A stretch of 64,000 nucleotides of DNA from Lachnospiraceae bacterium (GCA_024693545.1 JAILKT010000060.1:32723-96722), one strand, 5' to 3'; positions 15,110-47,628 are shown, numbered from the stretch's first letter. Notes: generated by a model from the letters alone, not told the origin. Numbers and translations are program-made.

Positions 15110-15135
15110 CAAATTTGGTCAAAATATACAATTAC

Positions 15136-15669: not shown

Positions 15670-15701
15670 GCTTTCCTCCAAGCTCAGAAGCCGCTGCAGT
15701 C

Positions 15702-24547: not shown

Positions 24548-25450
24548 TTATTCCACCGTACAGAAGCTTGCGGAAACATACGCCTTCGGCGCATCATTAT
24601 ATACGATCGCAACCCATCCATATACTTCAGGTGCAGTCGGGTCGAGTGAGTAAACCGCTCCCTCGGCAGCTATGGCAAGCTTATTTGATTCCATATTGGC
24701 GTCATCACGTATATAAACAGCCCTGTCTATCCTGACTTTTCTCGAACTTACTCCCTGAATCTGTTCATCCGCAGCTCTTCCTGTAAGGAGGTAGTTGTTT
24801 ATAACGTATCCCGTAAGATCTCCACACTTTACAAGAGAGAATTCTTCCCCCTTTTCAAGGACTATACCGTACGAGCCCTTGAGGAACTCCCCGACTTTTT
24901 CTGAGGATTTGCTTGCCTCCTTGCGGACATTGACCTGATAGTTTATGTTTTGAAGTACAAAATGCGTCTCTGTTCCGTCAAATTTAAGTTCTTCCACAGG
25001 AACATTTTTCCCTATCGGCAATCCTTCTGCCGTAACCTCGCCGTTATTGCCTGATCCTTCGTTTCCGGATGATGCGTTATTGTCCCCGTTTGTTTTCTTA
25101 TCGTCTTCCTGTTTGGTCTTGCCGTTCTCTCCTTCAGTGTTACTCTTCGACCCGGTGTTTTCCGATGCGGCATCTGAGGACTTGTTTTCCGGATTCACTT
25201 GCTCCGAATTGTTTTTCTTTGAATCCGAAGGATCGGTTTCACTGCTTTCTTCTCTTTTGATCGCTTCGTCTTCACCCAAAGGCGACAGTTTTTCGTTGCT
25301 GTTATTAACCGTCTGCTTTGTTTCGACATTTTCGGTTTTGTCGTTTCCTCCAAACTCGTTTACCAGGGAGATAACTCCGAATATGAGTGCCAATATTGCC
25401 GTGATAACAAATACTCCGGTTATAATCTTAAAAATCTTGTTAGGATTCAT
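24548..25450 (-). CDS. membrane-anchored protein with two bacterial SH3-like domains
   Basis: N-terminal TM helix, a Ser/Asn/Glu-rich linker, then two SH3b-like blocks (VNVRKEASKSSEKVGEFLKGSYGIVLEK..., VYIRDDANMESNKLAIAAEGAVYSL...). Confidence 0.65.
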   Translation of the reverse strand: MNPNKIFKIITGVFVITAILALIFGVISLVNEFGGNDKTENVETKQTVNNSNEKLSPLGEDEAIKREESSETDPSDSKKNNSEQVNPENKSSDAASENTGSKSNTEGENGKTKQEDDKKTNGDNNASSGNEGSGNNGEVTAEGLPIGKNVPVEELKFDGTETHFVLQNINYQVNVRKEASKSSEKVGEFLKGSYGIVLEKGEEFSLVKCGDLTGYVINNYLLTGRAADEQIQGVSSRKVRIDRAVYIRDDANMESNKLAIAAEGAVYSLDPTAPEVYGWVAIVYNDAPKAYVSASFCTVE

Positions 25451-26453: not shown

Positions 26454-28784
26454 TCACAGTCCTATCTGCGACGCATATGGTTCAAAATCTCCTTTGGTAA
26501 ATACCTTACCTACTTTGATAAACTCATATTTTATCGCAAGGAGATAATGCTTCATATGAACTTCCTTACCGTCTCCGTCGGCTGCCGCAAGGAATGCGGC
26601 ATTGAGGATACAGTTCTTTATATTACCGCCCGCAAACTCAAAACGTTCGGCAAGGAACCTGAAATCCACGTCCTCGGCAAGAGGCGTAGTCTTCGGAACC
26701 GTCGTTCTCCAAAGCATCTCACGTGTATCGACATCGGGGAACTGGAATTCTACGATGTATTTCATACGTCTGAAGAATGCGGGATCGATGTTGTGCTTGT
26801 AGTTTGTTGCAAGCACGCACACGCCGTCATATGCTTCCATTTCCTGAAGGAGGAGTGCCGTCTTGTTGTTGGCCGATGCCTGGTTTGAACCTCCGTCATC
26901 GGAACGTTTTGCAAAAATAGTATCACATTCGTCAAAGAAAAGGACAACATTACATTTTTTTGCTTCCCTGAATATCATAGAGAGCGACTTCTCTGTTTCA
27001 CCGACATACTTGTCAACTACCTTCGAAACGTCAACTCTGTAAAGCTCCAGATTAAGCTCATGCGCAAGCACCTGCGCCATCATGGATTTACCGGTACCGG
27101 GTGCACCGAAAAGAAGAACTGTAAGTCCACGTCCGTAAGGATACTTCTTGATATAATTCCAGTCATCGTAGACCGCATTCTTAAAGTTCATCTGCTCAAT
27201 GGCATGTGAAATCGTCTCGCGCTGATCCGGATTCATAACGATATCGTCAAAACCGAATTTAGCCTCAACGCGTGTTGCCTTCTTACTGAGTTCCGAAGAC
27301 ATCTGCGCATTACATCCCTTGAACAGCATCGCCCTTGAGATTGCCTTTTCTTTATTCATTGTGGCGAGACTGCGTGCATGATAAAGGGCATCCTTTATCT
27401 TCCCCGGCGTAAAGAGGAATTTTATCGTCATCTCTCCGAGATCGCAATCCTCGCCGAGTTCGTACGGCTTGGAATAATAATTCCAGCATTCCGCACGCTC
27501 AGCAGCCGAAGGCGTCGAGATCGTCAGTTCTGTAAAATCGAGCTTCGTGATGGTTTTAAGCTGAAGCGTATCCATACTGAGCGTAAATACAAGAACGCCT
27601 TTCTCCGAAAGCTTCGAAAATGCCAGATCCATATATCCCTGAAATTTTTCCTTTTCTTCTTCTCTGTATGAAAGTTCTTCAAGGACACATGCCGAATTGG
27701 TGAGTATACATTCTCTGGCCGCTGCCCAAAGAGCCTTGTCTACAAACGAGTAATCATATACAAAAAGCTTTCGGCAGTTAAGTGCTATGGCCTTCAAGCC
27801 GCGCTTCGCGCAGAAATGCTTAACAAAGAATTTCCTTCCGCTGCCCTCATCTCCGCAATACGAGAAGATCTTCACGCCCTGATCGTAGGAAATCTCCATA
27901 GCCTCCAAAACAGCGCTGTTAGCGAGAATCGGATCGAGTTCTTTCCCATCCGTCAGCATTCTCATAAATCTTATATAGTTCTCATCGATCTTGTCGGGGT
28001 TTCGGCCGAAAAGGAAATCTATGATCCTTTTATCGGGTGAAACAACAGTCGAAAACGGCATACTTGAAGCGACCCTGAGGTCAAATACGGGAAGAAGCTG
28101 TTCAAGGCATACAGACATATCCGCATATACGCCCGTGATGGAGAATTCCTTTCCGTAGAACAGCTTTGCGGCAGATTCGATAGTCGGTGCCGAAAGCGAT
28201 CCGTTTTCATTGATAACCTGGAAAACTCCCGCATAGTCTGTCTGTGTAGATGAAAGAACAGCCGCAGCAAAACAGAATACCGTAAACGGTTCAAATCCCT
28301 GCTTGTTGCAAAGCTCATAGAAAGGCATTCTGATCCCCGCATTAACAGACGCCTCCGCTCTGCTCATGATATAATCCATGATCTCGGGAAGATTATCGGT
28401 CTCGTTTTCCGATTTCTTCTTTGACTCCACTGCTTCGCTCTCCGGTGCTTTCTCGGCAAATCCTGCCAGGAGGCTCATCAGATCGTCATCCTCCGCTAAA
28501 GCAGTCTCTTTACTTTCTGATTCCGAAGACTCCGCTTCCGTCGAATCGTCCGCTTTATTTTCTCCTTTAACAGAAAAAGCCCGCATCTTGTCGCGACATA
28601 TATCATGTGCCACTTCAAGATCGGGATACAGTACATTTTTATAGCCCCCCTGACCGGTTGCAAAGGTCAGTTTCATACCGGACAGGTATGCATCAAGCCC
28701 CGTATTTACGCAAGCAAAAAGATTTTCCATAAGCTCATCATAACTTGCAAACGGTTTGCTTTTTAATTCCTGTGAACAGATCAT
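26454..28784 (-). CDS. AAA+ ATPase of the contractile-injection-system type (Afp15/Pvc15-like)
   Basis: 776 aa with a long N-terminal region and one C-terminal AAA module (LLFGAPGTGKSMMAQ, VVLFFDECD, sensor and Arg-finger region). It lies at the distal end of a phage-tail-like cluster. Confidence 0.8.
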   Translation of the reverse strand: MICSQELKSKPFASYDELMENLFACVNTGLDAYLSGMKLTFATGQGGYKNVLYPDLEVAHDICRDKMRAFSVKGENKADDSTEAESSESESKETALAEDDDLMSLLAGFAEKAPESEAVESKKKSENETDNLPEIMDYIMSRAEASVNAGIRMPFYELCNKQGFEPFTVFCFAAAVLSSTQTDYAGVFQVINENGSLSAPTIESAAKLFYGKEFSITGVYADMSVCLEQLLPVFDLRVASSMPFSTVVSPDKRIIDFLFGRNPDKIDENYIRFMRMLTDGKELDPILANSAVLEAMEISYDQGVKIFSYCGDEGSGRKFFVKHFCAKRGLKAIALNCRKLFVYDYSFVDKALWAAARECILTNSACVLEELSYREEEKEKFQGYMDLAFSKLSEKGVLVFTLSMDTLQLKTITKLDFTELTISTPSAAERAECWNYYSKPYELGEDCDLGEMTIKFLFTPGKIKDALYHARSLATMNKEKAISRAMLFKGCNAQMSSELSKKATRVEAKFGFDDIVMNPDQRETISHAIEQMNFKNAVYDDWNYIKKYPYGRGLTVLLFGAPGTGKSMMAQVLAHELNLELYRVDVSKVVDKYVGETEKSLSMIFREAKKCNVVLFFDECDTIFAKRSDDGGSNQASANNKTALLLQEMEAYDGVCVLATNYKHNIDPAFFRRMKYIVEFQFPDVDTREMLWRTTVPKTTPLAEDVDFRFLAERFEFAGGNIKNCILNAAFLAAADGDGKEVHMKHYLLAIKYEFIKVGKVFTKGDFEPYASQIGL

Positions 28785-28804
28785 TTATAACATTCCTTCC
28801 CCGA

Positions 28805-29047
28805 TTACTGTTCTTTCCTCTTTTTTGTCTTAAAAACCGCGTACCTGTCAAACACACTCTCCGCGTTGTTTATGCCGTTGTTCATATCCGAGGAAAAAAC
28901 TTTACTTTTCTCGTTTATATAATGCCACTCATGTGGTTCATATTCCAATACGTCATCTTCAGGTGCATCACCTTCTCTGCGCCTTTTTTCTTTTTTATCC
29001 TTGTCGGCTTTTTGGTTTGCCCTGGCAAGTTCTTTTTCTATCCTCAT
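28805..29047 (-). CDS. small highly charged hypothetical protein
   Basis: 80 aa with a KDKKEKRRRE N-terminal part and a KTKKRKEQ C-terminus. Tightly packed between the kinase and the ATPase genes. Confidence 0.45.
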   Translation of the reverse strand: MRIEKELARANQKADKDKKEKRRREGDAPEDDVLEYEPHEWHYINEKSKVFSSDMNNGINNAESVFDRYAVFKTKKRKEQ

Positions 29048-29066
29048 AAGGTTCTTCCCTTCGGCT

Positions 29067-29480
29067 TCAGATCTTCTTCATGATCGTGAAAACATTCTTT
29101 CCGTCAACACGCGCATAGCTCACACTGTCCATGCTGTTCTTTACCATATAGATCCCCAGTCCACCGATTTTCCTGTCCTGCGCCGGAAGGGTAACATCCG
29201 GGTCTTTCCGAAGCAGTGGATTGTATTCGATTCCCTCATCCTCAAAAACGATCGTGGCATTGCCTTTTTTATCGGTATCAACGCTTATGTCAGCGTATTT
29301 TTCGGCATTCGGTAATTCCTTATATGCGTATGAAGCAATATTTACAAAAATTTCTTCAACGGCGACGTCTATAACCGGAAGTTCGGTGTTACTCCACCCT
29401 TTTTTTGTGAGTAACCCGTTAACAAAATCGATGACCCCGGAAAGCTCGGATACCTCTGCGTCAAATCTCGCTTTTACCAT
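29067..29480 (-). CDS. anti-sigma-factor-type Ser kinase (RsbW/SpoIIAB-like, HATPase_c_2)
   Basis: N box EEIFVNIASYAY, G1-like DEGIEYNP, G2 GGLGIYMV. The start is moved to the ATG at 29480 after GGGAGGA. Confidence 0.78.
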   Translation of the reverse strand: MVKARFDAEVSELSGVIDFVNGLLTKKGWSNTELPVIDVAVEEIFVNIASYAYKELPNAEKYADISVDTDKKGNATIVFEDEGIEYNPLLRKDPDVTLPAQDRKIGGLGIYMVKNSMDSVSYARVDGKNVFTIMKKI

Positions 29481-29506
29481 ATGTCCTCCCATTCAAATCT
29501 GACATC

Positions 29507-29806
29507 TTACTCTATGGTAATAATGCTGTCAAAGCCCGAGAGTTTCAAAACCGATAAAATCGCTTCCGAAACATTGATCAGTTTCATCTCCCCGCCCTTC
29601 GACTGTGCAGTCTTCTGACCTATCAATAGAGCTCTGAGTCCCGCACTTGAAACGTATTCGCATTTTTCAAAATCAATAGTCAGGTTTTTAACCTTTTGAA
29701 AAGCCAGCAAAATACTGCTCTGCAGGCCTCCGCTTGTTGAAGCATCAACTCTCCCCTCAACAGAAATAGTAATAAGTTCTCCGTTTCTCGTTTCGCTTAA
29801 TGTCAT
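29507..29806 (-). CDS. STAS-domain anti-anti-sigma factor (SpoIIAA/RsbV-like)
   Basis: ISVEGRVD...DFEKCEYVSSAGLRALL, with the conserved phosphorylatable Ser in the VSSAGL motif. The start is moved to the ATG at 29806 after AAGAGGGG. Confidence 0.82.
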   Translation of the reverse strand: MTLSETRNGELITISVEGRVDASTSGGLQSSILLAFQKVKNLTIDFEKCEYVSSAGLRALLIGQKTAQSKGGEMKLINVSEAILSVLKLSGFDSIITIE

Positions 29807-29904
29807 ATGTACCCCTCTTAGCATTTGAAATGTAGTTTCGACTCTTCCTTTCAACAATCGAAACAGATTATGAAATATCAATCCTCATCAACTTAATCAT
29901 GTTT

Positions 29905-29934
29905 ATTATACGCTATTTTAGGCTTTACATACAA
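29905..29934 (-). promoter_or_regulatory. internal promoter candidate ahead of the STAS-kinase-ATPase module
   Basis: Minus strand reads TTGTAT (29934-29929), an 18-nt spacer, then TATAAT (29910-29905), in the 135-nt gap after the gpI-like gene. Confidence 0.4.
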
Positions 29935-29941
29935 TAAAAAA

Positions 29942-31075
29942 TTATCTTAGTACCGGTCCGTCCTCATCATCCGTCAGTACCATCCCATCCTGCAGTTTTT
30001 CTCCGGGCATAAGAACGTTGGCATCAAGTGACATATGACTGTCAAGCTTTCCTTCCTTTGTATCGAATACCGTAGCATTGATATCGAGGTAACTGTGGGT
30101 GTCGAGCCCGCTCCTGCCTTCGAGATAAATGATACGCAGATGTGTCCTTATGGGAACGAACTGATTCAAAAGGAAGAAGAGCTGTGATTTCTTTTTTTCT
30201 TCCACAAACGATCTTATAAGGATCGTAACATCAAATTTGTTTTCTCCGAACATTCGCTGATCGTATTCGTCTTTGTTCTCGATTATGATGCACTTCTCCG
30301 AAAGCACTATCTCGCAGAGTCTCTCAAGGGCGGCTTTTGTTCCTTTCTTTCTGTTAAGCATCGGCGCCTCTTTCACAAGCAGTCTCAGCTTTTCTTCCTC
30401 AAGGAAATCGCCGCTCAGGTCGATACCCATCCAACCCGCATAAGTCACAAGCAGCTCCTTATCGGCCACTTCCGTATCGAGATTGACCGCATATCCGTCG
30501 ATCCTGTCCTGAAAATCGTTAAATATCGACGAAAGAACAGAAAGATACCTATGGAAGAATCCTCCTCTCTTTCTGTAAATCTCAGGCAACGTGTTCATAA
30601 AAGTATCGCCCGGATTTATGACTTTTATATCGCTCAAAGGTCCCTCGAAGCTTCCCTCAATTCGTATGGCAACAAAAAGATATCGTCCGTTGACGTCGTA
30701 CATAAGTATGTCGTTGGCACCTCTTATCGACTTTGCCCCCGCAAGCTCAAAAAGACTAAGTTTTATCCCCGGATCTTCATTTGTTTCGCAGAGGAACTCC
30801 TTCATATCGGAAAGGACATTTTTTCTCGTAAATGCCGTTGTTTCCGTAGCAAAATAAAATATCGTCACTTCGGTGTCATCGGGAACATTGATATTAAAGG
30901 TCAGCCTTCCCCATTCTGCTTCCTGCTTACCTGCGTCAAACGGTGGAAGAAAGACATAATGCATTCTGTCCGTATCATCACAAAAAAGCCTTCCTTTATC
31001 ATCCGTCTTAAGGGCATAAAGGGCGGAGTGGCTTATTCTGCTATTTTTAACTGAATACCTGGCTAAGTATGGCAT
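29942..31075 (-). CDS. baseplate protein, phage P2 gpI-like tail protein domain
   Basis: LPEIYRKRGGFFHRYLSVLSSIFNDFQDRIDG ... LLVTYAGWMGIDL ... LNRKKGTKAALERL matches the gpI-type LP.iY / wLA.WlG / RGT pattern. Confidence 0.75.
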   Translation of the reverse strand: MPYLARYSVKNSRISHSALYALKTDDKGRLFCDDTDRMHYVFLPPFDAGKQEAEWGRLTFNINVPDDTEVTIFYFATETTAFTRKNVLSDMKEFLCETNEDPGIKLSLFELAGAKSIRGANDILMYDVNGRYLFVAIRIEGSFEGPLSDIKVINPGDTFMNTLPEIYRKRGGFFHRYLSVLSSIFNDFQDRIDGYAVNLDTEVADKELLVTYAGWMGIDLSGDFLEEEKLRLLVKEAPMLNRKKGTKAALERLCEIVLSEKCIIIENKDEYDQRMFGENKFDVTILIRSFVEEKKKSQLFFLLNQFVPIRTHLRIIYLEGRSGLDTHSYLDINATVFDTKEGKLDSHMSLDANVLMPGEKLQDGMVLTDDEDGPVLR

Positions 31076-31090: not shown

Positions 31091-31191
31091 CTTTCAGAAC
31101 ATGTTAAGTTCGATCGATATTTTCCCGGCTCGTCAAAGTTACTTTCAGAACATATTAAGTTCGATCGATATTCTTCCGGCACAGCAAAGTG
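31091..31191. repeat. 51-nt tandem duplication spanning the stop codon of the 695-aa baseplate gene
   Basis: 31091-31140 versus 31142-31191 match at 43 of 50 positions. The downstream copy (31091-31140) is a ghost of the last 12 codons (RAGKISIELNMF-stop) preceded by an in-frame TGA. Confidence 0.85.
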
Positions 31192-33232
31192 CGTTTTCTG
31201 CAGGAATAACATCAAGACCGCTCATGATCGCATTTGAATTTTCCGGTTTTATCGATAATTCATAAATATGATCAACACAATCAAGTTCCTCAATATCGGT
31301 GAAAAGCGCATCAAATTTAAGGGTCTCGCCGAAATTCTGTTTACCTGATATGTAATCGAGGTGTTTTTCGATCACCTTCCTGATTTCTTCCATACTGTTC
31401 TCATAATGCTTTCTGACATATATCATCCCGTTGACCTCAATGGGAACATATGTGGGCTGCGCCACCTTGATCCGGGTAGAAAGTACCCTGCGCTCATCAA
31501 GGAAATCCTTTATCTTATTAACGTATATGCTCGGAAGCAGTGATCTTTCCGTATCGGAATACGGTTTGACCACCACCGTCACTTCATTCTTTGCGGAATC
31601 CGCGATCGCTTTTACTTTGTGAATACAAAGATCGGGGATCGTCCTCACCAGATCCTCATAGTCCGATTTCTTAACCGCAGTATAAGGCGTATTCAGGTCT
31701 TCCGTAAATCTGGCCGTAAGCTCATCCAGATTTTCCTTAAGTCTACCTCCCTCGCCGATATAGGGATTATAAAACCTTACGTTCGTTTCGTATCCTATGG
31801 GGATAAATGTGTTTCCCGGGCGTACATTACCCTCACTTCCCATAGTCACGGCACATGAGCAGATATAGAGCTCGGCTCCGATATAATCACCGGCATCCCT
31901 GATATATATATGTCCTTTTCTCTCGTCGAGGGTATAATACAGCTCACCCGGCTTGTTCCTGTCCGGACGTACAAAATCATAAAAATCTTCGCCGTCGATC
32001 GTCCTTTTTGCTATAAGCGTAAAGCTTTCGGGTACAACGTTCTGAACCGGCAGTTCTATATCCTGATCGTCATATCCGATCACCGTATCAAGCATGCGCT
32101 GACGCATAAGTTCTTCGTTATAGGCAACTATCTTTATGCTGTCCATTCCGCTGCCGGGACCGTATCCGTATTTTTCCTTGTTAAACAAGTATTTATACAG
32201 GCCGTAAGCCTCTTTCTCCCGGTCGAAGAATCTTCCTTTTTCTGTCGTTCTGAACCTCGAATCCTCATAAAGCCTGTACGAGCCCTTCCTCGATTCTCTG
32301 ACAAAAACGTTTACATAATCTTCTTCAAGAAGATCACAATATATCTCGAGCTCATCCATTTCTTTGAAAGTATGGCATATAGATCTCGTTTCCTTTTGCC
32401 AAACCTCAAAGAGGAAACCATGAACCGAAAAGAATCTCGGAGGGACATCATAGTCGGCTCTTTCAAGTACCGCTCTCAGAACGTATCCTTCTCTTCCCTC
32501 TTTTTTGAATTTAGCGCCTTCAACACGGGGTATGCTGAGCCTGAGCTCTCCCCCGTTGAGGAATGCACGCGTTGCATCTTTGGTCCTCAGATCGACAAAT
32601 CCGTCTTTTGTATAATACTGCCATTTAACGGCAGCAAAAATATTTTCGTGTCTGTCCCCGCCCGGAGTTCTGTGAAAACGATCGTCAAACCCGAAATAAA
32701 ATATCAGTTCCGTATCCCTAAGCGGTTCTTTTTCAAGGAATATATAAAGTTCATCTCCCACAGCGGGCTTGTCGCCGAAGATCCTGACCGTCATCGTTGA
32801 ATTTCTGTCGATAAGAGAAGAACAGTCTATCACCTTTTTCGATGCAACGGAAATGATCGATGAAATGGAGTTTGCATGAACTATACTCCTTCTGTTTGTT
32901 TCAAAATTTATATCCCCGATCCTGAATTTCTGATCGTTTGGCAGATAAAAATCATCCGTTACATTTTCTGCCGCAAGAAGAACTCTTCCGCATCTGCCCT
33001 CTCTTGCCGTAAATCCCATCAGCTTGAGCAGTTTTTCCTTAACATCGTCCGCAACAAGACCGAGCTGGTTACTTTGAAGAGAATTGAAAGCGGTAATAAC
33101 CTCCAGAAGCGTAACACCCGGATCCGAAGGGTTGAAATTCGTCCACTCCTTCGAATAAAGAGGTATCTTACTGAATGCCTCCTCGATCATTGTCAAATAA
33201 TTTTTCGGTTCTTTTCTCTTTATCCTGATCAT
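31145..33232 (-). CDS. baseplate wedge protein, gpJ/gp6-like (second copy)
   Basis: The N-terminus KEWTNFNPSDPGVTLLEVITAFNSLQSNQL... follows the J-like pattern W..n..DPG..LlE. It is positioned between the J-like and I-like genes. Confidence 0.65.
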   Translation of the reverse strand: MIRIKRKEPKNYLTMIEEAFSKIPLYSKEWTNFNPSDPGVTLLEVITAFNSLQSNQLGLVADDVKEKLLKLMGFTAREGRCGRVLLAAENVTDDFYLPNDQKFRIGDINFETNRRSIVHANSISSIISVASKKVIDCSSLIDRNSTMTVRIFGDKPAVGDELYIFLEKEPLRDTELIFYFGFDDRFHRTPGGDRHENIFAAVKWQYYTKDGFVDLRTKDATRAFLNGGELRLSIPRVEGAKFKKEGREGYVLRAVLERADYDVPPRFFSVHGFLFEVWQKETRSICHTFKEMDELEIYCDLLEEDYVNVFVRESRKGSYRLYEDSRFRTTEKGRFFDREKEAYGLYKYLFNKEKYGYGPGSGMDSIKIVAYNEELMRQRMLDTVIGYDDQDIELPVQNVVPESFTLIAKRTIDGEDFYDFVRPDRNKPGELYYTLDERKGHIYIRDAGDYIGAELYICSCAVTMGSEGNVRPGNTFIPIGYETNVRFYNPYIGEGGRLKENLDELTARFTEDLNTPYTAVKKSDYEDLVRTIPDLCIHKVKAIADSAKNEVTVVVKPYSDTERSLLPSIYVNKIKDFLDERRVLSTRIKVAQPTYVPIEVNGMIYVRKHYENSMEEIRKVIEKHLDYISGKQNFGETLKFDALFTDIEELDCVDHIYELSIKPENSNAIMSGLDVIPAENALCCAGRISIELNMF

Positions 33233-33269
33233 TTAAGCCCCTTCGGTCAGCCGTAAAAAGACTGGTCAT

Positions 33270-36200
33270 TTAAATATTTGAAAGCATTTCTTCGCTTATC
33301 GTATGTGCCTTATGTGTTCCGCTCTTAACAACAAAGAATTTGTTGTTCGGCAGTTTTTCTAGATCACATTCCTTCAAGCCGTTGGCATCCATATACGTCC
33401 CCGTAACAACAAGTCTTCTGATAAATGCACCTGTCTTCAGCGAATTCAGTTTCATCATTATCTGTGACTTTCCGGGAAGCTTTCCTATATCCCACCCCGG
33501 ATTGAGCGGATCCGATATCGGTGAAAGGAATGATGAAAGCGCTTTTGTGAGTTTAAGTCCGACTATATAATCATTTTCATTCTCAGTCCTGTTCATCCAT
33601 ATATCCACCGAAATAGACACGGGCACCGGTTCAACGATTTCGATCGTATCAAAGCTTGATGTAAACTCAACGCACTGCTCGAGATGATCACGCAGTCTCG
33701 GAACAAGTCTGTCGAAGGAATGTGTGCCCTTCCCGAAGTCTTTCATAAGCAGCACTATGCTTATGAGCCCTTCCTTCTTTCTTCCGTCCACCGATTCCCC
33801 GATAATACATTCGACTTTGTTGATATTATCGCTGAAACCGAGTATCTCATTTTTGTAATCCGCCATGGTGACGATCCTGTTTCGGCTTCCGATGATCCCC
33901 GCCGCTCTGTTGAGCGCGCTTTCAATTGATTCTATGCTGCTGCCGCCGTAAGCCGGTATCGGATTATAAAGATTTCCCAGGAAATCGACTCTCGTCATGC
34001 TTCCTTCTATCATATTTGCCGCTATATTGGCCTCGGCACCGTTACAGCTGCGTGCAAGCACTCTGACCGCCGTAGCATCCGTTACTGTTGGGATTGCCAC
34101 ATGAACACCGTCACCGAAGATTATCCTGCTCGTCTGCCTGTCAAGCACGTAATGCCTGTCACCTTCCTTTGACCTGTCAAACGAACTGACTTCTTCCCAC
34201 TTAACGAAGAAATTATCTATATTACCATATGTATCATATTCCGCAAGAACTCTGTCGTTTTCGTTTCTTACGAGCGCTTTCATTTCGTCGATACTATGTT
34301 TTCCGATCTCATTGACCCATACTTCCGCATCCAGAATATTCCTCTCTGCCAGCGTGACAGAAAGCCCCGGTGCAACATCGTCAAGGAAAAATTCCTCAAT
34401 CTCATGAGTATCTATATTGCTGACATCGACCGTGTTTAATATCATATTTTTTATGACCGGTCTGTATATATCTTCCTGACTGAAATGACCATCGATATCA
34501 ACTACTCTGATCCAGTAACATTTTCTTCCTTCAATGGCAACCGCCGCCATATCTTCGGGCGGCATAAACCTGATCTGTCCGGATCTGGCCAGGCAATCGG
34601 TTCCGTCCACTATCTGAAGAGGCTTGAATCCGCCGATAGTCGAGTATTCGTATCTGAGATTTGCTCCCACATAAGACGACTCTTCTTCAAGCTGAACAAA
34701 CATAGATATCGGACCTGCGACAAATCTGCTGCTGAACCCGAAATAAAGGGCATTGTCTGAATATGAGCTGACTCTGAAAGCAGTTATTCCTTTGCCTGAC
34801 ACAAGCGCATCCGTTACGTCTTCATGTTTGTTATTGCTTACAACCTCAACATGTTCGGGCTTAACGAATATATCATCGTATGAATATTCAACCGTTGCGT
34901 TTTTTATTATGGGATAGTTATGATTACAGGGCATCATGTAGCAATTATCACACTTAATACTCTGAAGTCTTATCGCCCTTCCGCGTCCCCCGTCATCATC
35001 CCAATCATCGGGACATATAAAGGAAAAAGTCCGTTTTCCCGCTTGGGCCGAGGCAAACATCGTTGATTCACCGGACGAAAGCTTAAGTCTTTTCCATCCT
35101 GTTGTAGAAGAGTATTCTATTGAGATCTCATCGACATAGGTTTCTACAACACGGGTATTTATGGCAAGTCTCGGCTTTCTCTTGATAACCTTAAGAGTAT
35201 CCTCTATCTGGGTAACCGACATCGTCACGGAGTTGACCGCAAATTCAACATCAAACGAAACAGTGATCCTTGCCCCCACTCTTGAAAAATATTTATCGTG
35301 ACGTAAAAAACACTCGTCGAACATCGATATTTTCTCGGAGAACGGCCTGAAATTAAGGGGATCGCAATCGATACTTCCCGTGCCGACCGACTCGAAGGGC
35401 TGTCTTTCGCCTACCGATGAAAAATCAATTCCGTTCACTCTGATCCGCTCATTTACGTTACCGGCAGGCTCGATAACCATCATCGAATATTCGCGGTCAC
35501 GCCTGATCCTTCGGCACTCCCCCGATTTCTTGAGATATATGATATCATTCTTCACATGACCAATCTCATCAAACGGAACAAACCCTTCATCAGTTAAGTA
35601 AGATATCCTGTATGTCCCGTCAATAATACGGTCCGAAAGTCCGTCGGGACTGTCGATCCTCATATATATCTTTTCATCGTTGATATCAAAATAGTAAGAA
35701 TGGAAAAGAAGCAGTGCATTTCTTGTGAGTTCCTCACCACTGTCGTCAAATGCTTTAAAGGATTTAAAGGCATATTCCCCAATCCATGTCTCTGTCTCAT
35801 CTTCATAACTTGGAACTGTTTCTTCACCGATCGAAAGTTCGGGCAGTATATCCATTTTTGCGGCCGATCCCATAATCTTTCTGATCTTGCCTGACGTTGC
35901 ATCTGTCGTAAGGATATCGGTCAGGTGTGAATTGGTGATAAAAAGATGATGGGATGTTTCAAAGATGATACGTTCTTCGCTGTCTCCCCCGTAAAGCTTT
36001 GTCCCCTTTTGAACAAAACTGCCGGGTACCGTGTCGGAGGCCAGTTCCATAACAACCGTTGTTGATGCGGGCTGTGCAGGCAGCAATGAAACCCCCGTCA
36101 TATTGGCAAGTTCCGAATGATAAACCTCGAGCAGCTCGTTAAAACGGTCGATGTTTTCTGCCATTTGTTCAGCAAAAATAATGCCGATAACCGAGCCGAT

Positions 36201-36317
36201 ATCGGGATTCTGTGTATCGAAATGCCATTCCGGGACATAAACCTTAGACAGAGTATTTATCTGTTCCTTTATATCCGCGACTTTTCTTTTGTCAAGATCA
36301 AGCCTGTTGTTCTTCAT
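33270..36317 (-). CDS. large baseplate wedge protein, gpJ/gp6-like (Afp11-like)
   Basis: 1015 aa. The N-terminus VPEWHFDTQNPDIGSVIGIIFAEQMAENIDRFN...LLPAQPASTTVVMEL is typical of putative baseplate assembly proteins. It overlaps the gp25 gene by 20 nt. Confidence 0.72.
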   Translation of the reverse strand: MKNNRLDLDKRKVADIKEQINTLSKVYVPEWHFDTQNPDIGSVIGIIFAEQMAENIDRFNELLEVYHSELANMTGVSLLPAQPASTTVVMELASDTVPGSFVQKGTKLYGGDSEERIIFETSHHLFITNSHLTDILTTDATSGKIRKIMGSAAKMDILPELSIGEETVPSYEDETETWIGEYAFKSFKAFDDSGEELTRNALLLFHSYYFDINDEKIYMRIDSPDGLSDRIIDGTYRISYLTDEGFVPFDEIGHVKNDIIYLKKSGECRRIRRDREYSMMVIEPAGNVNERIRVNGIDFSSVGERQPFESVGTGSIDCDPLNFRPFSEKISMFDECFLRHDKYFSRVGARITVSFDVEFAVNSVTMSVTQIEDTLKVIKRKPRLAINTRVVETYVDEISIEYSSTTGWKRLKLSSGESTMFASAQAGKRTFSFICPDDWDDDGGRGRAIRLQSIKCDNCYMMPCNHNYPIIKNATVEYSYDDIFVKPEHVEVVSNNKHEDVTDALVSGKGITAFRVSSYSDNALYFGFSSRFVAGPISMFVQLEEESSYVGANLRYEYSTIGGFKPLQIVDGTDCLARSGQIRFMPPEDMAAVAIEGRKCYWIRVVDIDGHFSQEDIYRPVIKNMILNTVDVSNIDTHEIEEFFLDDVAPGLSVTLAERNILDAEVWVNEIGKHSIDEMKALVRNENDRVLAEYDTYGNIDNFFVKWEEVSSFDRSKEGDRHYVLDRQTSRIIFGDGVHVAIPTVTDATAVRVLARSCNGAEANIAANMIEGSMTRVDFLGNLYNPIPAYGGSSIESIESALNRAAGIIGSRNRIVTMADYKNEILGFSDNINKVECIIGESVDGRKKEGLISIVLLMKDFGKGTHSFDRLVPRLRDHLEQCVEFTSSFDTIEIVEPVPVSISVDIWMNRTENENDYIVGLKLTKALSSFLSPISDPLNPGWDIGKLPGKSQIMMKLNSLKTGAFIRRLVVTGTYMDANGLKECDLEKLPNNKFFVVKSGTHKAHTISEEMLSNI

Positions 36318-36720
36318 TATTCTCCTCCGAAGCGCCGTACAAGTAGAACGGGAACACCAAATTATCTCTCGTATTGGTCTGTGTGACGGTATAATGTATA
36401 TCTATAAGCAGATATCCCGACTTTGACTGAGCATCAAAATTCACCGTCACATCGGACACTCGCGGCTCCGACATTTTTATATCGTTAACGATATCCATCC
36501 TCATCAGGTTTAGGCGCGTTGCATTGGGATCGGTAAAAGCAAATTGTTGTATTTCACTGCCGAATTCGGGTCGCAGCCATCTTTCTGACTTTTGCGTCAT
36601 AAGGATCACATAAACCGATTCCTTGACGCTGTTCACACCGCTTGATGTTTCAAACCTTCCTGTCGAGGGATTGATCGTTGGCGGGAATTTCATCCCCGTA
36701 CCCAAAAATTCATAATCCAT
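36298..36720 (-). CDS. baseplate wedge protein gp25/gpW-like
   Basis: GTGMKFPPTINPSTGRFETSSGVNSVKESVYVILMTQKSERWLRPEFGSEIQQFAF is the GPW_gp25 signature. Confidence 0.88.
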   Translation of the reverse strand: MDYEFLGTGMKFPPTINPSTGRFETSSGVNSVKESVYVILMTQKSERWLRPEFGSEIQQFAFTDPNATRLNLMRMDIVNDIKMSEPRVSDVTVNFDAQSKSGYLLIDIHYTVTQTNTRDNLVFPFYLYGASEENNEEQQA

Positions 36721-36739
36721 ATGAGTATTCCTTTCATGA

Positions 36740-37585
36740 TCATCCGAGTTTTATTGCGTTACCGTTTACCCCTACCGTACCCGATGCCTCCATGTTTATC
36801 GAACCACCTGACTTAATGATCGTTTTATTTGACGAAATACCGAATTCACCATCGGTATCAAGCTTTATTCCTCCCGATGCCTTAACATTCGTTTTCTTGT
36901 TTGTGACGATATCAAGCGTATCGCACTTGAGGCTGAGCTTACCTGTTTGTCCGTCCATTTTTACCGATATACTGTCGGACACATTTATCTCAAGTTTGTT
37001 CTTTGTTTTTATACGTAAGAGACCGGAATTATCCTGACCGTCTATCATGAGCATGTTTTCCTTGTTCTTATCGGCAATGATCACCGTTTCCGTCCTGGAA
37101 TCCATATCCATAAAAAGTTTTCCGTCAAAGAGTTCGATCCGAAGGTTATCTTCCTGGTTTTCGGTCTGTCCGTCATCTTCGTATTTCACGAAAGACTTGC
37201 CGTTCCTGGCTTTTACCTGTTTAATGCTGTTGTTTCTGTCTGAAGATTTCCCGACAAGCTTTGCGTCACTTTTTGGAATACACCCAACAACATAAGGCTT
37301 ATCAATGTTTCCTTCCTCAAATGTAACCAGAACTTCGTCTCCGACTTCGGGTATAACATAGCTTCCCCAATTCTTTCCCATGTACATGGCTACTACCTTG
37401 GCCCACTTGAGAACGTTGCTGTTTGTATCCCTGTTCGGGATCCTCACGCAAACCTTTCCGGGTTGATTTATATCATAGTTTTTATCTACAATACCAACAA
37501 CCACACCAAATATACGATTGTCGCCCGTTTCGGTCTTTACAACCCTTCGGGCGCTGATCTCTTCCATAATGTCAATAAAATCCAT
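36740..37585 (-). CDS. central spike protein, gpV / gp5-OB-fold (VgrG C-part-like) with a beta-helical C-terminus
   Basis: FGVVVGIVDKNYDINQPGKVCVRIP...YVIPEVGDEVLVTFEEGNIDKPYVVG is the gpV/VgrG OB-fold motif. The C-terminal part is repetitive beta strands. Confidence 0.82.
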   Translation of the reverse strand: MDFIDIMEEISARRVVKTETGDNRIFGVVVGIVDKNYDINQPGKVCVRIPNRDTNSNVLKWAKVVAMYMGKNWGSYVIPEVGDEVLVTFEEGNIDKPYVVGCIPKSDAKLVGKSSDRNNSIKQVKARNGKSFVKYEDDGQTENQEDNLRIELFDGKLFMDMDSRTETVIIADKNKENMLMIDGQDNSGLLRIKTKNKLEINVSDSISVKMDGQTGKLSLKCDTLDIVTNKKTNVKASGGIKLDTDGEFGISSNKTIIKSGGSINMEASGTVGVNGNAIKLG

Positions 37586-37600
37586 ATCGTTCCTCTTTGA

Positions 37601-38821
37601 TTAAAATAAGCCGGTCAGATCCGGTATCAGCTCCTGCGGTCTGATATCCTTTGCTTTCCCTTCGATCACGCATTTGTATTCGCCTTTTCTTGTCATAACA
37701 TGGCGCACTTTATTCATATAAAATATATTGCTCGCACCTTCTCCGATCCCTTCTATTTCGATAAATCTTCCGGGCGCGAGTGCAGGTATTCCGAGTGTTT
37801 CGCAGCTGATCTTTCCGAATTTGTACGATATATTCTCGATCAGATAATTCATTCTGTTCTGCGCCTCGCTTTGAGTATGGACCGAAGGATCAAGATATAC
37901 CATTTTGTTGTTCTTTACCAATTTTGCAGCCTTGGATCCGAAAGACCACTCATTCGAAACCTTTGATGATGCTGTTATCAGGTCGCCCTTGTCAGTATCG
38001 GTTGCTCTTACTTCAACCTTCCCGACCTGTCCCGTGATATCATATTCAATATCAAAGCTTCTGAGTATATTTCCGGGCGTGATCGTCATCAATGTATCGG
38101 TATATACCTTTGCCGGTCTGAAAATGACCGTTCCTGCCGCAATAAAGAATTCAAAATTTACCTTCTTTGCCATCCTCACCACAAACTCGTAATCACTTTC
38201 ACCCACCATCTCTATCGTAGGCTTTTCAAGCGGAGGCGTGGGAGGTGTGGGCGGTGCTGCTCCGATTTCGGTAGGTATCCCCGCATCCGGAGTTGTTTCG
38301 ATCTTAAGCCCTGTTATTATTCCGAGCGCCGTAAGTGAGGCATATGTCGGTCCGTTAAATATCTCTGAAACTGCCTTATCGATCGTTGTAGCCATAAGCT
38401 GACGCGATGAATTATTAGCCATCATAATTCCTTTTGCGTCCATAGCCGTAACAACCACATACGGTATTTCAGGATCCTCAAACACAAAATTGATCTTTGA
38501 TATAAAGCCCACAAACACGGGTATCGCAGCTGTGGAATATCCGAGATCGATCTCAATCTGCGAACCGATATATAAATACTTTTCATGCTTGCTTGTGTTA
38601 AAAACGCCCTTGTCTCTGTCGTACATTCCATATATACGAAAGCTCGCCACAGAAGCCTCAAATCCGCTTGACATATCTACACTTACCTGAGAAATACTGA
38701 GCGTCTTGTTTTTATCGACCAGATCCTTTTTATTGACCATTATCACAACATGAGGATTCTTAAAACCGTTGTAATCTTTTTTTAGCTTATCATAATCGAT
38801 TGAATCTCCGAAAATCTGCAT
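37601..38821 (-). CDS. baseplate hub protein, phage late-control gpD / gp27-like
   Basis: The C-terminal GIPALAPGRFIEIEGIGEGASNIFYMNKVRHVMTRKGEYKCVIEG matches the gpD pattern (G.p.l.pG..v.l.G.g..f.G.y.i..v.H). Confidence 0.7.
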   Translation of the reverse strand: MQIFGDSIDYDKLKKDYNGFKNPHVVIMVNKKDLVDKNKTLSISQVSVDMSSGFEASVASFRIYGMYDRDKGVFNTSKHEKYLYIGSQIEIDLGYSTAAIPVFVGFISKINFVFEDPEIPYVVVTAMDAKGIMMANNSSRQLMATTIDKAVSEIFNGPTYASLTALGIITGLKIETTPDAGIPTEIGAAPPTPPTPPLEKPTIEMVGESDYEFVVRMAKKVNFEFFIAAGTVIFRPAKVYTDTLMTITPGNILRSFDIEYDITGQVGKVEVRATDTDKGDLITASSKVSNEWSFGSKAAKLVKNNKMVYLDPSVHTQSEAQNRMNYLIENISYKFGKISCETLGIPALAPGRFIEIEGIGEGASNIFYMNKVRHVMTRKGEYKCVIEGKAKDIRPQELIPDLTGLF

Positions 38822-38833
38822 TTATATGCCCCT

Positions 38834-39685
38834 TTATAGATTAAGATTAAGTAATGATCCTCCGACGGCCTCAAGTAATGATTTTGACCCAACTTTCTGC
38901 TCAACCCCCGGCTTGCCGAGCAGCTTAGTGAACGCATCATCCCAGTATGTATTTCCCATCACCATAACCTGGCCGCCTTCTTCACCCTCCGGCGAAGCAT
39001 TTGTCTGTCTCATGGAGATATCAACCACCGCCGCTATAGGATTTCCGCTTGGTGAAAACATGGTATATTGTGCATTCACATTCTCAATCTCTCCGAAGAA
39101 AACGACATCACCCATAATAAAAACCGCCTGTCTTGTCGCAAATGAATTGACGAGCGATACAAGACCGTCAACCGGAGTCTGAACCGAATATGTCGCAGCT
39201 ATTGCCATGACATCTTTTACAATTGCAGCAGGGGACAGGATTGCCTTGTCCTGCAGGAATGCTTCCGCATTATTAATATCGTAAAAATAAATTCTGAAAC
39301 TCATGGAAGTCTGAGCAGGAACCGATGCCATCGTAACCTGATTCATACCGACTTCGGGAGCACCCTGTCTTTGCATATACGATCCGACCTGTGAATTCAA
39401 ATATATGGTATCCGGATTATACTGAAATTCAAACAGATCCCATTTATCCTGGCTATCGACATAATTTCTGAGTGTCTTACCTCGCATCGGTCCGCCTGAC
39501 ATAAGCTGGCTGAGAAAAGCTGTCGCATCAGTTGCCGCCGATGCCATTGCCTTCAATTTACCGGCCTGCTCCATAAGACCACCGGAGAAATCAGGCTCGT
39601 CCAGTCTTCTCACGAGAAGTGACGCCTTAGTGGGACTTCCCAGTATGCTGTTTCCCAGATTGGATAATGCTCCGCCAATACTCAT
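38834..39685 (-). CDS. CIS tube-initiator-type protein (Afp7/Pvc7 N-domain-like), paralog B, no LysM
   Basis: FEFQYNPDTIYLNSQVG ... NVNAQYTMFSPSGNPIAAVVDISM are motifs of the CIS tube protein family. Confidence 0.7.
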   Translation of the reverse strand: MSIGGALSNLGNSILGSPTKASLLVRRLDEPDFSGGLMEQAGKLKAMASAATDATAFLSQLMSGGPMRGKTLRNYVDSQDKWDLFEFQYNPDTIYLNSQVGSYMQRQGAPEVGMNQVTMASVPAQTSMSFRIYFYDINNAEAFLQDKAILSPAAIVKDVMAIAATYSVQTPVDGLVSLVNSFATRQAVFIMGDVVFFGEIENVNAQYTMFSPSGNPIAAVVDISMRQTNASPEGEEGGQVMVMGNTYWDDAFTKLLGKPGVEQKVGSKSLLEAVGGSLLNLNL

Positions 39686-39723
39686 AATCGATACTCCTTA
39701 GCCTGTTTATGTTCTGTTACCGC

Positions 39724-40587
39724 TTAACCCAGATTGATCAACGAACCGGCCGCCTGTCCGACCGTAGAATTACTGATCACTTTTCCGAGTTCATCATTTA
39801 CAAACGCATCTCTATAACGGTCCTCCCACTGACCCAGGCATCCCTTTACAATCTTTGTGTCAGAGCACAGGATCGTCAAATTCACAACAGCCCTTAAAGG
39901 CTTCCCTGTAGGCGAAAACATAGTGTATTGAGCATTAACCCCGTTTATAAGACCGTGGTAGCTCATATCTGCCCATGAAAACATGATCTCCCTTGTATAA
40001 TCACTTCTAAGCACCGCTATCAGACCTTCTACCTGTGTCTGAACCGAAACCTCACCACCGGAAAAAAATGTCGCAAAAGCCGTTTTTGCAATTGATGTGG
40101 GCGCGAGACTCAGTTTATCCTGCAGGAATGCTTCCGAATTAACAACACGGTCAAATATCAACGGAATGGTCACAGTAATACGCGGATCAAGAGTTTGATA
40201 AGAGATACTTCCCATAGCTCCCTTTTCTTTGTCTTTTGTGGATCTTCCGACATTCGTAACCTGCGACATACCGCCGCCCTGTGCCTGTATCGTTATCGTG
40301 GAAGGATTGAACTGAACCTCAAACTGTTTCAGACACGCATCCTTCGGAAAAGGATTTTTCCCGTTCGCCAAAAGCTTTCTCGGATCAATGGGCATGGCGC
40401 TGAGCCCCGTTGAGACTGCATTTGAAATTGCCTTATCAAGCCCGGCGAGAGAAAAACCCTTCTTCGTCTTTATCTCTGTCGGCTTTCCCACTTCGGTTTT
40501 TTCAAACTTACGGGCATCTACGATCGTAATAACACCGAGCACCGGATTGCCGGTGACGCTGGCCAAAAGATTCGTTCCGATTCCCAT
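39724..40587 (-). CDS. CIS tube-initiator-type protein, paralog A, no LysM
   Basis: FEVQFNPSTITIQAQGG ... GVNAQYTMFSPTGKPLRAVVNLTI. Shares end motifs with the neighbouring paralog. Confidence 0.7.
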   Translation of the reverse strand: MGIGTNLLASVTGNPVLGVITIVDARKFEKTEVGKPTEIKTKKGFSLAGLDKAISNAVSTGLSAMPIDPRKLLANGKNPFPKDACLKQFEVQFNPSTITIQAQGGGMSQVTNVGRSTKDKEKGAMGSISYQTLDPRITVTIPLIFDRVVNSEAFLQDKLSLAPTSIAKTAFATFFSGGEVSVQTQVEGLIAVLRSDYTREIMFSWADMSYHGLINGVNAQYTMFSPTGKPLRAVVNLTILCSDTKIVKGCLGQWEDRYRDAFVNDELGKVISNSTVGQAAGSLINLG

Positions 40588-40636
40588 GCTTTTTTCCGCC
40601 TTTCATAAATTAGAGCCTCATCTTCCGATCGTTACA

Positions 40637-42916: not shown

Positions 42917-42946
42917 TTTGCCGCCTCCCCTCCTGCGTTCTGTATT

Positions 42947-44302: not shown

Positions 44303-44316
44303 CTTGAAGCTCCTTC

Positions 44317-44478
44317 TCACTTAAAATCAACGATACTCTTTTCTTTGCTCTTGCTCTCTGAGGGATTCAGACTTTTGTTGATCGCCGATATCTCATTGCA
44401 CCATCTGCGCCGACTTTTATGATCGAGCGCCATCACCTCATCATTACTCCAGTGAAAATAATACGAGATAAAGGACAT
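44317..44478 (-). CDS. unannotated 53-codon ORF in the -1 frame of the chaperone gene (probable E-prime frameshift extension, or a separate small protein)
   Basis: Translation is MSFISYYFHWSNDEVMALDHKSRRRWCNEISAINKSLNPSESKSKEKSIVDFK. The frame stays open upstream across the chaperone stop codon. Only a poorly spaced SD-like AGGGA lies 2 nt before the ATG. Confidence 0.6.
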   Translation of the reverse strand: MSFISYYFHWSNDEVMALDHKSRRRWCNEISAINKSLNPSESKSKEKSIVDFK

Positions 44479-44510
44479 TTCCCTGTATAAGTCATCTTTA
44501 GGGTACAGCT

Positions 44511-44873
44511 TTATCCCTCTCGAGTAAAATTTACCGGTACCTCAAAAGTCTTGCCACAATCGGGACATACAACCGTCATAACAGGCAGTTCAACATCATT
44601 TATCTTCTGATACATATCCTGCAGAAAAGCAAGGTCTGCCGTAAAAAGCCTTTCTATTACCGTTGCTGAGACAGCAGCTATTCCTTCGATTTCGGTTACT
44701 ACCTTACCAAGGATCGCAATCGTCAGATATGACGGATTCGAAAGAACTCTGGGGTCTCTCGTTGCATTTATTTCATCGCCTGCAGTAGCAAGCCGCATTT
44801 TTCCGAATTTATGTACTTCGCCCGCATTGTCAATATATCCCTTGGGCAATTCAAAATCATAAACAGTCTGCAT
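44511..44873 (-). CDS. tail assembly chaperone, P2 gpE-like, with a C-terminal CPDCG zinc-ribbon-like end
   Basis: DFELPKGYIDNAGEVHKFGKMRLATAGDEINA...LTIAILGKVVTEIEGI...IERLFTADLAFLQDMYQKIN resembles the gpE-type chaperone. It lies directly after the tube gene. Confidence 0.65.
   Translation of the reverse strand: MQTVYDFELPKGYIDNAGEVHKFGKMRLATAGDEINATRDPRVLSNPSYLTIAILGKVVTEIEGIAAVSATVIERLFTADLAFLQDMYQKINDVELPVMTVVCPDCGKTFEVPVNFTREG
44526..44532 (-). promoter_or_regulatory. candidate -1 programmed ribosomal frameshift slippery heptamer A_AAT_TTT
   Basis: In the zero frame GT[A AAT TTT] ACT, 4 codons before the chaperone stop. It lies inside the only window (after the last -1-frame TGA) from which the -1 frame reads through into the 53-codon ORF. 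Confidence 0.5.
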
Positions 44874-44900
44874 TTTCTACCTCCCCTTCATACCGCCTCA

Positions 44901-44923
44901 AGGGAGTCAATATGAGACTCCCT
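44901..44923 (-). other. stem-loop downstream of the major tube gene
   Basis: 8-bp stem AGGGAGTC/GACTCCCT with a 7-nt loop in the 122-nt gap. No U-tract follows. Confidence 0.4.
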
Positions 44924-44995
44924 CGAAAGCGCATATGTTAACATTTTTCCAACTGTATCTTTCTTATCTTTATCTGCATATCTCGAACAGCGATA

Positions 44996-45511: not shown

Positions 45512-45531
45512 AATCTAGTTCTCCTTTCAAA

Positions 45532-47223: not shown

Positions 47224-47240
47224 CTTTTTATGTTCTCCTT

Positions 47241-47627: not shown

Positions 47628-47628
47628 A

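Follow-up and report, generated by a model that had tools for sequence, protein, structure and literature searches.

A CIS-specific STAS protein and an adjoining kinase as candidate parts of a sigma-less phospho-switch in clostridial injection loci

We focus here on two adjacent genes in a complete contractile injection system (CIS) cluster carried on 64 kb of Lachnospiraceae DNA (GCA_024693545.1, JAILKT010000060.1:32723-96722; this whole stretch is referred to as the window). One encodes a STAS protein and the other a HATPase_c_2 protein, predicted to be a serine kinase of the RsbW/SpoIIAB type, and the two lie between the genes for a baseplate protein, Tail_P2_I, and an AAA+ ATPase. Judged from sequence comparison, the STAS protein is a member of a distinct CIS-specific subfamily, and this putative switch protein keeps the same position in the CIS loci of many Clostridia from gut and rumen. 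The domain identities are clear, the motifs of both proteins are intact, and no sigma factor recurs beside them. We propose that STAS and the kinase are the local parts of a partner-switching phospho-switch that lacks a sigma factor and is dedicated to the CIS, a reading to which we give roughly even odds (about 0.5).

The fixed place of STAS emerges from censuses run in both directions. In the forward census, a Baseplate_J alignment (built on the 695-aa protein) served to scan one genome per species, which yielded 64 loci that were annotated with purpose-built STAS, kinase, PP2C and ABC profiles as well as with the window proteins. Counts are based on the 45 clostridial loci that contain Tail_P2_I and at least 1.4 kb downstream; these span Lachnospiraceae, Hungatella, Acetatifactor, Butyrivibrio, Anaerotignum, Oscillospiraceae, Family XIII, Bengtsoniella and Cellulosilyticum, and the Baseplate_J proteins of the clostridial loci are 31-82% identical to that of the window. 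A STAS gene lies directly 3' of Tail_P2_I in 38 of these 45 species-level loci (84%), and STAS was not found in the distant archaeal, acidobacterial, cyanobacterial and flavobacterial loci of the 64-locus set. The reverse census started from STAS and drew on its best database matches and on a metagenome scan with the STAS alignment (80 loci). With all sets combined, Tail_P2_I is upstream in 115 of the 116 STAS loci that have upstream sequence. The signature GLRALLIGQKTAxSK is present in all of the best 120 STAS database matches (59-100% identity, nearly all 99 aa), and the two matches sampled for genomic context are both directly 3' of Tail_P2_I. The fixed place spans Lachnospiraceae, Oscillospiraceae, Eubacteriales Family XIII and other families, and for one STAS variant, P0189, the index of the contig collection lists 249 blocks.

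STAS is also conserved to the same degree as a structural component. In distant loci its median identity to the window protein is 54%, equal to that of gp25, compared with 43% for Baseplate_J, 42% for the kinase, 39% for Tail_P2_I and 38% for the spike. Because this type of STAS is found almost only there, in more than 100 related loci, clostridial injection systems probably carry a signal-controlled switch of their own. The original prediction, made from this DNA alone, had tied its case to such pairs co-occurring with CIS loci in related genomes; that is borne out strongly for STAS, in both directions of the census, and for the kinase in just over half of the loci (see below). These comparisons support the view that the pair is not a chance passenger of the CIS locus. 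A few loci depart from the usual order: in L043 (8222-8948) a STAS-kinase pair, its STAS of the transporter type described below, lies 5' of the Baseplate_J gene; PP2C separates Tail_P2_I from STAS in L115, L118, L134 and L137 (~3800-7400; all from metagenomes); and a cap-like gene does so in L090.

The window STAS is a single-domain protein that also matches Pfam STAS_2 (1.1e-11) and exceeds the cutoff of TIGR00377, the NCBIfam anti-sigma-factor-antagonist superfamily (57.1 bits vs 53.45). The mechanical call of its open reading frame (ORF) opens at a TTG at 29881. The real start is almost certainly the ATG at 29806, since a ribosome-binding site, AGAGGGG, is found there and every homologue is 99 aa long. 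Ser54, the predicted phospho-acceptor, is the second serine of YVSSAGL and occupies the start of helix alpha-2. It aligns with the phospho-serines of SpoIIAA (Ser58), RsbV (in its DST motif) and TM1442, and it is unchanged in 42 of 42 CIS-linked STAS proteins. The window STAS falls below the equivalog cutoff for spore_II_AA (46.1 vs 114.75 bits) and, with a weak match of 7e-4, below the mlaB_1 cutoff (19.9 vs 90 bits). The kinase, whose closest solved structure is RsbW (6m36_A), falls likewise below two RsbW equivalog cutoffs (34.2 vs 145 bits and 29.4 vs 155.05 bits), and an alignment with RsbW shows that its N-box (EEIFVNIASYAY), DEG and GGLGIYMV motifs are intact. By these scores, both proteins share fold families with the sporulation and sigma-B systems and are not orthologues of their components.

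Variable partners and the proposed switch

The kinase gene begins 14 nt past the STAS stop codon, and its product is 100% identical to an 'ATP-binding protein' of a Lachnospiraceae metagenome-assembled genome (MAG). Several claims of the original prediction stand: a SpoIIAA-like STAS with a conserved serine in VSSAGL and an RsbW-like kinase do lie between the baseplate and AAA+ genes, they are followed by an 80-aa charged protein (p80) and the Afp15-like ATPase, and Pfam searches of all window ORFs of at least 100 aa find neither a sigma factor nor a PP2C/SpoIIE phosphatase. The proposal of a CIS-linked switch without a sigma factor fares less evenly. Its link to the CIS is conserved, and the part that gave the kinase the CIS-facing role is not upheld, as the conserved player is STAS.

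This asymmetry is apparent when the partners of STAS are counted within 7 kb in the 76 STAS-bearing loci that have at least 5 kb downstream. A HATPase_c_2 kinase is present in 43 of them, a PP2C phosphatase in 27, an FtsE-like ABC ATPase directly 3' of STAS in 44, a membrane HATPase_c protein in 25 and an SH3_3 membrane protein, a frequent neighbour of the kinase and AAA+ genes, in 20. The membrane HATPase_c protein often replaces the HATPase_c_2 kinase directly 3' of STAS or of the ABC gene. The order seen in the window, STAS-kinase-p80-AAA-HATPase_c-SH3_3, is a minor variant confined to near relatives. Since STAS is present in 84% of species-level loci with gp25-like conservation, and 33 of 76 loci lack the kinase, which is often fused to membrane sensors, STAS is likely the output that faces the CIS and the kinase the input.

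Where kinases and phosphatases are fused, their partners are always sensor or transporter domains (MatE, dCache, SDF, HAMP) and never sigma or CIS proteins. Examples are MatE::HATPase_c_2, dCache::SpoIIE::HATPase_c_2 and an SDF::dCache::HAMP::SpoIIE protein adjoining an SBP_bac_3 protein; the C-terminal domain fused to the kinase of L060 is left unassigned, its GCS2 match being sub-threshold (E = 0.076) and a PDB counterpart not being found. Full triads of STAS, PP2C and kinase adjoin the baseplate genes, for example in L078, in the order STAS-MatE-x-dCache::SpoIIE-kinase-...-p80-AAA. From their sequences, the kinases and phosphatases of these loci are thus tied to extracellular or transport-type sensors, and the absence of PP2C from the window is, on the same comparison, a lineage-specific loss or relocation and not a feature of the system. 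Sigma families are not among the recurrent families (Pfam, top 25, a cut that may mask a lone occurrence) of 107 unlabelled ORFs 3' of Tail_P2_I, where GNAT, GH3 and eCIS_core do recur. The nearest non-CIS relatives of the kinase (50-57% identity) belong to STAS/SpoIIE/kinase modules, again without sigma, in amino-acid ABC transporter operons. As a separate observation, many loci carry small-molecule enzymes and transporters between STAS and the PP2C or kinase genes (e.g. L017 13693-21167, L024 13636-16993, L078 9331-14353, L049 10006-12542 and L060 13523-19481), among them GH3 amido-synthetase, GNAT acetyltransferases, LPG_synthase_C, formyl transferase, a calpain-like peptidase, MatE and an SDF symporter.

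In the mechanism that we envisage, the kinase would use ATP to phosphorylate STAS on Ser54 and so change the binding partner of STAS. A sensor-linked PP2C phosphatase of the SpoIIE family, which may be encoded outside the window, would reverse this modification; about a third of the relatives' loci encode a counterpart, and in many cases it is fused to a sensor of the Cache, transporter-like or solute-binding type. Unphosphorylated STAS would be the output, binding a CIS-associated partner, and this binding would gate particle assembly, cargo loading, firing or release post-translationally, with an extracellular or metabolic signal as the trigger. Phosphorylation itself, the direction of its effect, its target and the post-translational level of control are inferred.

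The likeliest partner would be the ATPase encoded just downstream, which in the window is the Cis15-like AAA+ protein with p80; many relatives have an FtsE-like ABC ATPase there instead. The AAA+ ATPase, whose domain is Cdc48/AFG2-like, shows the strongest conservation in the locus (68% median identity across distant loci), and Pvc15-type ATPases load cargo (PMC11495950). A p80 homologue lies directly 5' of the AAA+ gene in many loci. It does so even in L016, a locus without STAS and kinase, and p80 thus belongs with the ATPase and not with the switch. It is possible, and we suggest this tentatively, that the CIS-type STAS acts as a phosphorylation-controlled safety catch or trigger by binding a CIS protein directly (the AAA+ ATPase with p80, or the baseplate), while Cache- or transporter-linked PP2Cs and kinases sense extracellular metabolites and so decide on assembly, loading or firing in gut and rumen Clostridia.

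Competing roles for the pair

Several observations weigh against a switch dedicated to the CIS. The HATPase_c_2 kinase is absent within 7 kb in those 33 loci, and 18 of the 76 have neither it nor the membrane HATPase_c protein. With no PP2C in the window, the switch is incomplete locally. The closest outgroup, L016 (Baseplate_J 52% and AAA+ 76% identical), has Tail_P2_I-p80-AAA without STAS or kinase, so that the AAA+ ATPase is not obligately coupled to the pair, and six further loci also lack STAS; the module is therefore dispensable, as would be expected of a regulator. Furthermore, two related Lachnospiraceae MAGs, L003 and L004, share the chromosomal flanks of the window (glgB ... SH3_3, ABC-F, amylase, DUF5721, HSP90, HisKA-REC) and lack the entire CIS, and both have retained the kinase by itself, as an intact gene in the interval from glgB to SH3_3. 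What is missing there (L003 9447-10567, L004 9665-10496) is a block of ~35 kb, at 24548-60321 of the window between glgB (60846-63407) and SH3_3/ABC-F, that comprises the CIS, six large ORFs upstream of it, STAS, p80, the AAA+ gene and the membrane HATPase_c gene. Besides the kinase, the site holds an extra gene (241 or 268 aa) without an assigned family, and for this arrangement to have arisen from that of the window, two separate deletions would be needed, one on each side of the kinase. When all island proteins were compared with L003 and L004 by tblastn, only the kinase, SH3_3, ABC-F, glgB and a small glgB-adjacent ORF (p155) were found, with no remnants of STAS, p80 or AAA; the idea that the whole STAS-kinase pair is a resident gene pair is rejected on this ground. 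In plain neighbour-joining trees of the kinase and of SH3_3, calculated without support values, the CIS-less taxa nest inside CIS-bearing ones, so the CIS was probably lost and the kinase kept. Its retention alone suggests that the kinase has at least one other client, and it may not be dedicated to the CIS.

The persistence of the kinase at this site bears on two of the alternatives. It could be taken to mean that the pair is a resident chromosomal signalling module with no functional link to the CIS, and the supplement of the eCIS (extracellular CIS) survey of Geller et al. (2021; PMC8213781) accords with this, since HATPase_c_2 (14 genes) and SpoIIE (18 genes) appear there solely among the rare 'Cloud' domains and show no significant enrichment in eCIS. 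We consider such a role very improbable in view of the place that STAS keeps 3' of Tail_P2_I across families, of a subfamily found only there and of its gp25-like conservation. A lone kinase would also fit a non-CIS client of the classical kind, in which the kinase would be the anti-sigma factor for a sigma factor encoded elsewhere and STAS would free that sigma to transcribe the CIS operon or some other regulon. HATPase_c_2 and STAS proteins are best known as anti-sigma/anti-anti-sigma pairs, their closest solved structures are those of RsbW, RsbV and SpoIIAA, and, as a further point against a sigma-less switch, our view is of 64 kb of the genome, beyond which an unlinked sigma is possible. 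We nevertheless regard the classical arrangement as unlikely, since sigma factors are missing both from the window and from the recurrent families 3' of Tail_P2_I, the two proteins lie far below the SpoIIAA and RsbW equivalog cutoffs, the less conserved and frequently absent component is the kinase while STAS is the CIS-specific one, and the modules that contain the kinase's nearest non-CIS relatives lack a sigma factor as well.

A different role is suggested by the ABC ATPase that directly follows STAS in more than half of the relatives, often with overlapping stop and start codons that chain STAS-ABC-HATPase_c-SH3_3-p80-AAA (e.g. in L100). STAS could be the MlaB-like regulatory subunit of an envelope module that comprises the FtsE-like ABC ATPase and the two membrane proteins, HATPase_c and SH3_3, and that anchors the CIS or opens the Gram-positive wall to allow release or firing; the lineage of the window would then have lost the ABC ATPase, and the pair would act on what remains of the module and not on the AAA+ protein. 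MlaB-MlaF is a STAS-ABC ATPase pair of this kind, and FtsEX controls cell-wall hydrolases. The weak MlaB match of the window STAS, the ABC-kinase adjacency that is also seen in the parent transporter-linked family, and the dependence of Streptomyces CIS firing on the membrane protein CisA (PMC12237407) all point the same way. This role is nonetheless doubtful: the STAS-kinase pair of the window has no adjoining ABC ATPase, an FtsX-like permease was not seen, the score for MlaB is well under the cutoff, and in L036, L048, L099, L106 and L136 STAS is followed by AAA+, with or without an intervening p80, and by no envelope genes. The ABC ATPase itself, found for example within L100 6001-11081 and L018 13516-14205, is an orphan of ~225 aa, seen without a permease and scoring below the cutoff of the FtsE model (224.6 vs 264.85 bits). 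The sigma-less, CIS-dedicated switch remains the reading that we prefer.

Gene order, promoter candidate and flanking genes

All genes of the STAS/kinase/CIS region are on the minus strand, and the CIS cluster runs from ~48994 down to 26454 (Pfam; ORFs of the window), with the eCIS core gene set of Afp/PVC-like systems in one cluster. The order is Pvc16_N cap, DUF4280 (PAAR-like), sheath, gp19-type tube, two CIS_tube paralogues, the Phage_base_V (VgrG-like) spike, gp25, two Baseplate_J-like proteins and Tail_P2_I, then STAS, the HATPase_c_2 kinase, p80, the 776-aa AAA+ protein, the membrane HATPase_c protein and the membrane SH3_3 protein. The slot between Cis12 and Cis15 that is filled by STAS, kinase and p80 is, we presume, that of Afp13-14 in Afp. 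Pfam recognised no tail-fibre domain among the CIS proteins of the window. Coordinates are collected below.

Features of the STAS/kinase region, with positions in the window
Feature	Position	Strand	Basis or remark
Structural CIS genes	31145..48994	-	Pfam: Pvc16_N, DUF4280, sheath, gp19, CIS_tube, VgrG-like, gp25, two Baseplate_J-like
Tail_P2_I (Cis12-like) baseplate protein	29942..31075	-	Pfam Tail_P2_I 2.1e-6; gene preceding STAS
Candidate internal promoter, TTGTAT-18-TATAAT	29905..29934	-	In the 135-nt gap between Tail_P2_I and STAS; read from sequence
STAS protein, 99 aa, CIS-type subfamily	29507..29806	-	Signature YVSSAGLRALLIGQKTAxSKGG; Pfam STAS 6.4e-14
Ser54 codon, predicted phospho-acceptor	29645..29647	-	Translation CEYVSSAG
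HATPase_c_2 (RsbW/SpoIIAB-type) serine kinase (predicted), 141 aa	29067..29492	-	Pfam HATPase_c_2 2.6e-19; 137 aa in the NCBI call
p80, 80-aa charged protein	28805..29047	-	No Pfam/NCBIfam match; companion of the AAA+ ATPase
Cis15/Afp15-like AAA+ ATPase, 776 aa	26454..28784	-	Pfam AAA 4.8e-28, residues 556-681 (C-terminal); candidate switch target
Membrane-anchored HATPase_c protein, 285 aa	25526..26383	-	Pfam HATPase_c 1.1e-19, residues 173-277
Single-pass membrane protein with SH3_3 domain	24548..25450	-	Pfam SH3_3 1.6e-8; helix read from sequence

The original prediction had also given the pair a promoter of its own. The TTGTAT-18-TATAAT sequence does exist, beginning 8 nt past the Tail_P2_I stop codon. 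The window has a single TTG-N21-TATAAT where chance predicts 0.83, a frequency at which the match alone is not significant. The promoter scanner did not list it because its -35 element fits at only 3 of 6 positions, and the 25 promoter-like sites that the scanner found are no excess over the 17.7 +/- 4.3 expected. In its favour, the -10 element is kept in three related loci, as TTTACG-17-TATAAT in L014 and L015 and as GATAAT in L005, where the surrounding spacer DNA is otherwise poorly conserved. In most related loci the STAS gene begins 1-30 nt past Tail_P2_I. A separate promoter for STAS is thus plausible in the near relatives of the window only.

The 285-aa membrane HATPase_c protein, the product of a conserved accessory gene of the CIS, begins with two hydrophobic helices, and its HATPase_c catalytic domain is complete. 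Neither a HisKA/DHp domain nor a linker histidine was found in it by Pfam and by reading the sequence, and it matches histidine-kinase models by their catalytic-domain end only; it could be an alternative kinase or a sensor for STAS. A mirror image of this protein, with HisKA and a receiver domain and without HATPase_c, is encoded ~8 kb away (16680-17978, minus strand), and any pairing of the two is uncertain, since the HisKA-receiver gene is also present in the CIS-less L003 and L004. Related loci additionally carry eCIS_core (DUF4157) proteins. In L080 (14485-17915), and similarly in some other relatives, such a protein and a second, 701-aa AAA protein are encoded directly 3' of the Cis15-like ATPase, and the window has neither.

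On the other side of the CIS, the six large ORFs 5' of the cap gene (49016-60321, minus strand; 890, 728, 404, 789, 277 and 599 aa) have almost no family match beyond MORN repeats and a weak OEP-like stretch; they may encode cargo or proteins resembling fibres. The 599-aa ORF has weak homologues just 3' of the baseplate genes in the archaeal, acidobacterial and cyanobacterial CIS loci L064-L074. Further away, a minus-strand cluster at 6665-16505, with a T2SSE-type ATPase (11172-12821) and ~10 ORFs without a Pfam match, resembles an operon for a type IV pilus or for competence and appears to be unrelated to the switch.

Known systems compared

Little is known of the post-transcriptional control of phage-tail-like injectors other than the type VI secretion system (T6SS), or of how such injectors operate in thick-walled Gram-positives. 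If the direct safety-catch role were true, it would be the first post-translational circuit from signal to machine described for an eCIS-type system. For the question of which signal turns the machines on, and whether it does so at assembly, cargo loading, firing or release, Ser54 of this 99-aa protein would provide a handle. The proposed switch would add a case of partner switching in which a molecular machine, and not a sigma factor, is the output, and it may be of use in engineering controllable eCIS delivery tools. Our literature searches turned up no paper that connects contractile injection systems, eCIS included, with STAS or partner-switching proteins. An apparent mention of 'STAS' in Geller et al. 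turned out to be the word 'stasis', and a metagenome CIS survey of 2025 does not mention STAS, sigma or Clostridia.

Judged by the description of its locus, the closest analogue is the Bordetella set of BtrU (PP2C), BtrW (kinase) and BtrV (STAS), which is encoded beside type III secretion system (T3SS) genes and controls secretion by a mechanism that does not involve a sigma factor (PMC7498569). The same source describes transporter and ligase genes interspersed in the btr locus, much like the MatE, ABC, GH3 and GNAT genes of the related CIS loci. The systems differ in that the machine here is a phage-tail-like CIS and not a T3SS, the hosts are Clostridia, STAS sits inside the structural operon at a fixed place, no extracytoplasmic function (ECF) sigma/anti-sigma gene is near the window pair, and the window lacks a PP2C.

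That STAS itself would be the output has precedents. In Vibrio fischeri SypA, of the SypE/SypA system, and in Rhodobacter capsulatus RbaV, of RbaV/RbaW/RbaY, the unphosphorylated STAS acts as output on a non-sigma target, and RbaV/W/Y affect production of RcGTA, a phage-derived particle (PMC8256260; Mercer and Lang 2014). Unlike the switch proposed here, both modules lie outside a structural cluster for particles, and their readouts are biofilm or gene expression plus gene transfer agent production; furthermore, RcGTA is a head-and-tail particle that packages DNA and not a contractile injector.

The Bacillus systems SpoIIAA/SpoIIAB/SpoIIE-sigma F and RsbV/RsbW/RsbU-sigma B share folds, the position of the phospho-serine and the kinase motifs with the window pair, which differs from them in failing the equivalog scores and in lacking an adjacent sigma gene. 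The STAS/SpoIIE/HATPase_c_2 modules of amino-acid ABC transporter operons in Clostridia and Synergistales (L007-L013) have in common with the CIS loci the adjacency of ABC ATPase and kinase and the Cache-type PP2C sensors; they are set apart by the helix of their STAS, which reads AQKIMNKQG in place of the GQKTAxSKGG of the CIS type, and by having no CIS genes nearby. From the MlaB-MlaF pair the window STAS is distinguished by its score under the MlaB cutoff and by the lack of an adjoining ABC ATPase.

Finally, in the T6SS, threonine phosphorylation through PpkA, PppA and Fha1 gates the assembly of a contractile machine post-translationally in response to an envelope or extracellular cue. This is the same concept as the switch that we propose, realised with unrelated parts, a Hanks-type kinase and an FHA domain, and on a membrane-anchored machine of Gram-negative bacteria.

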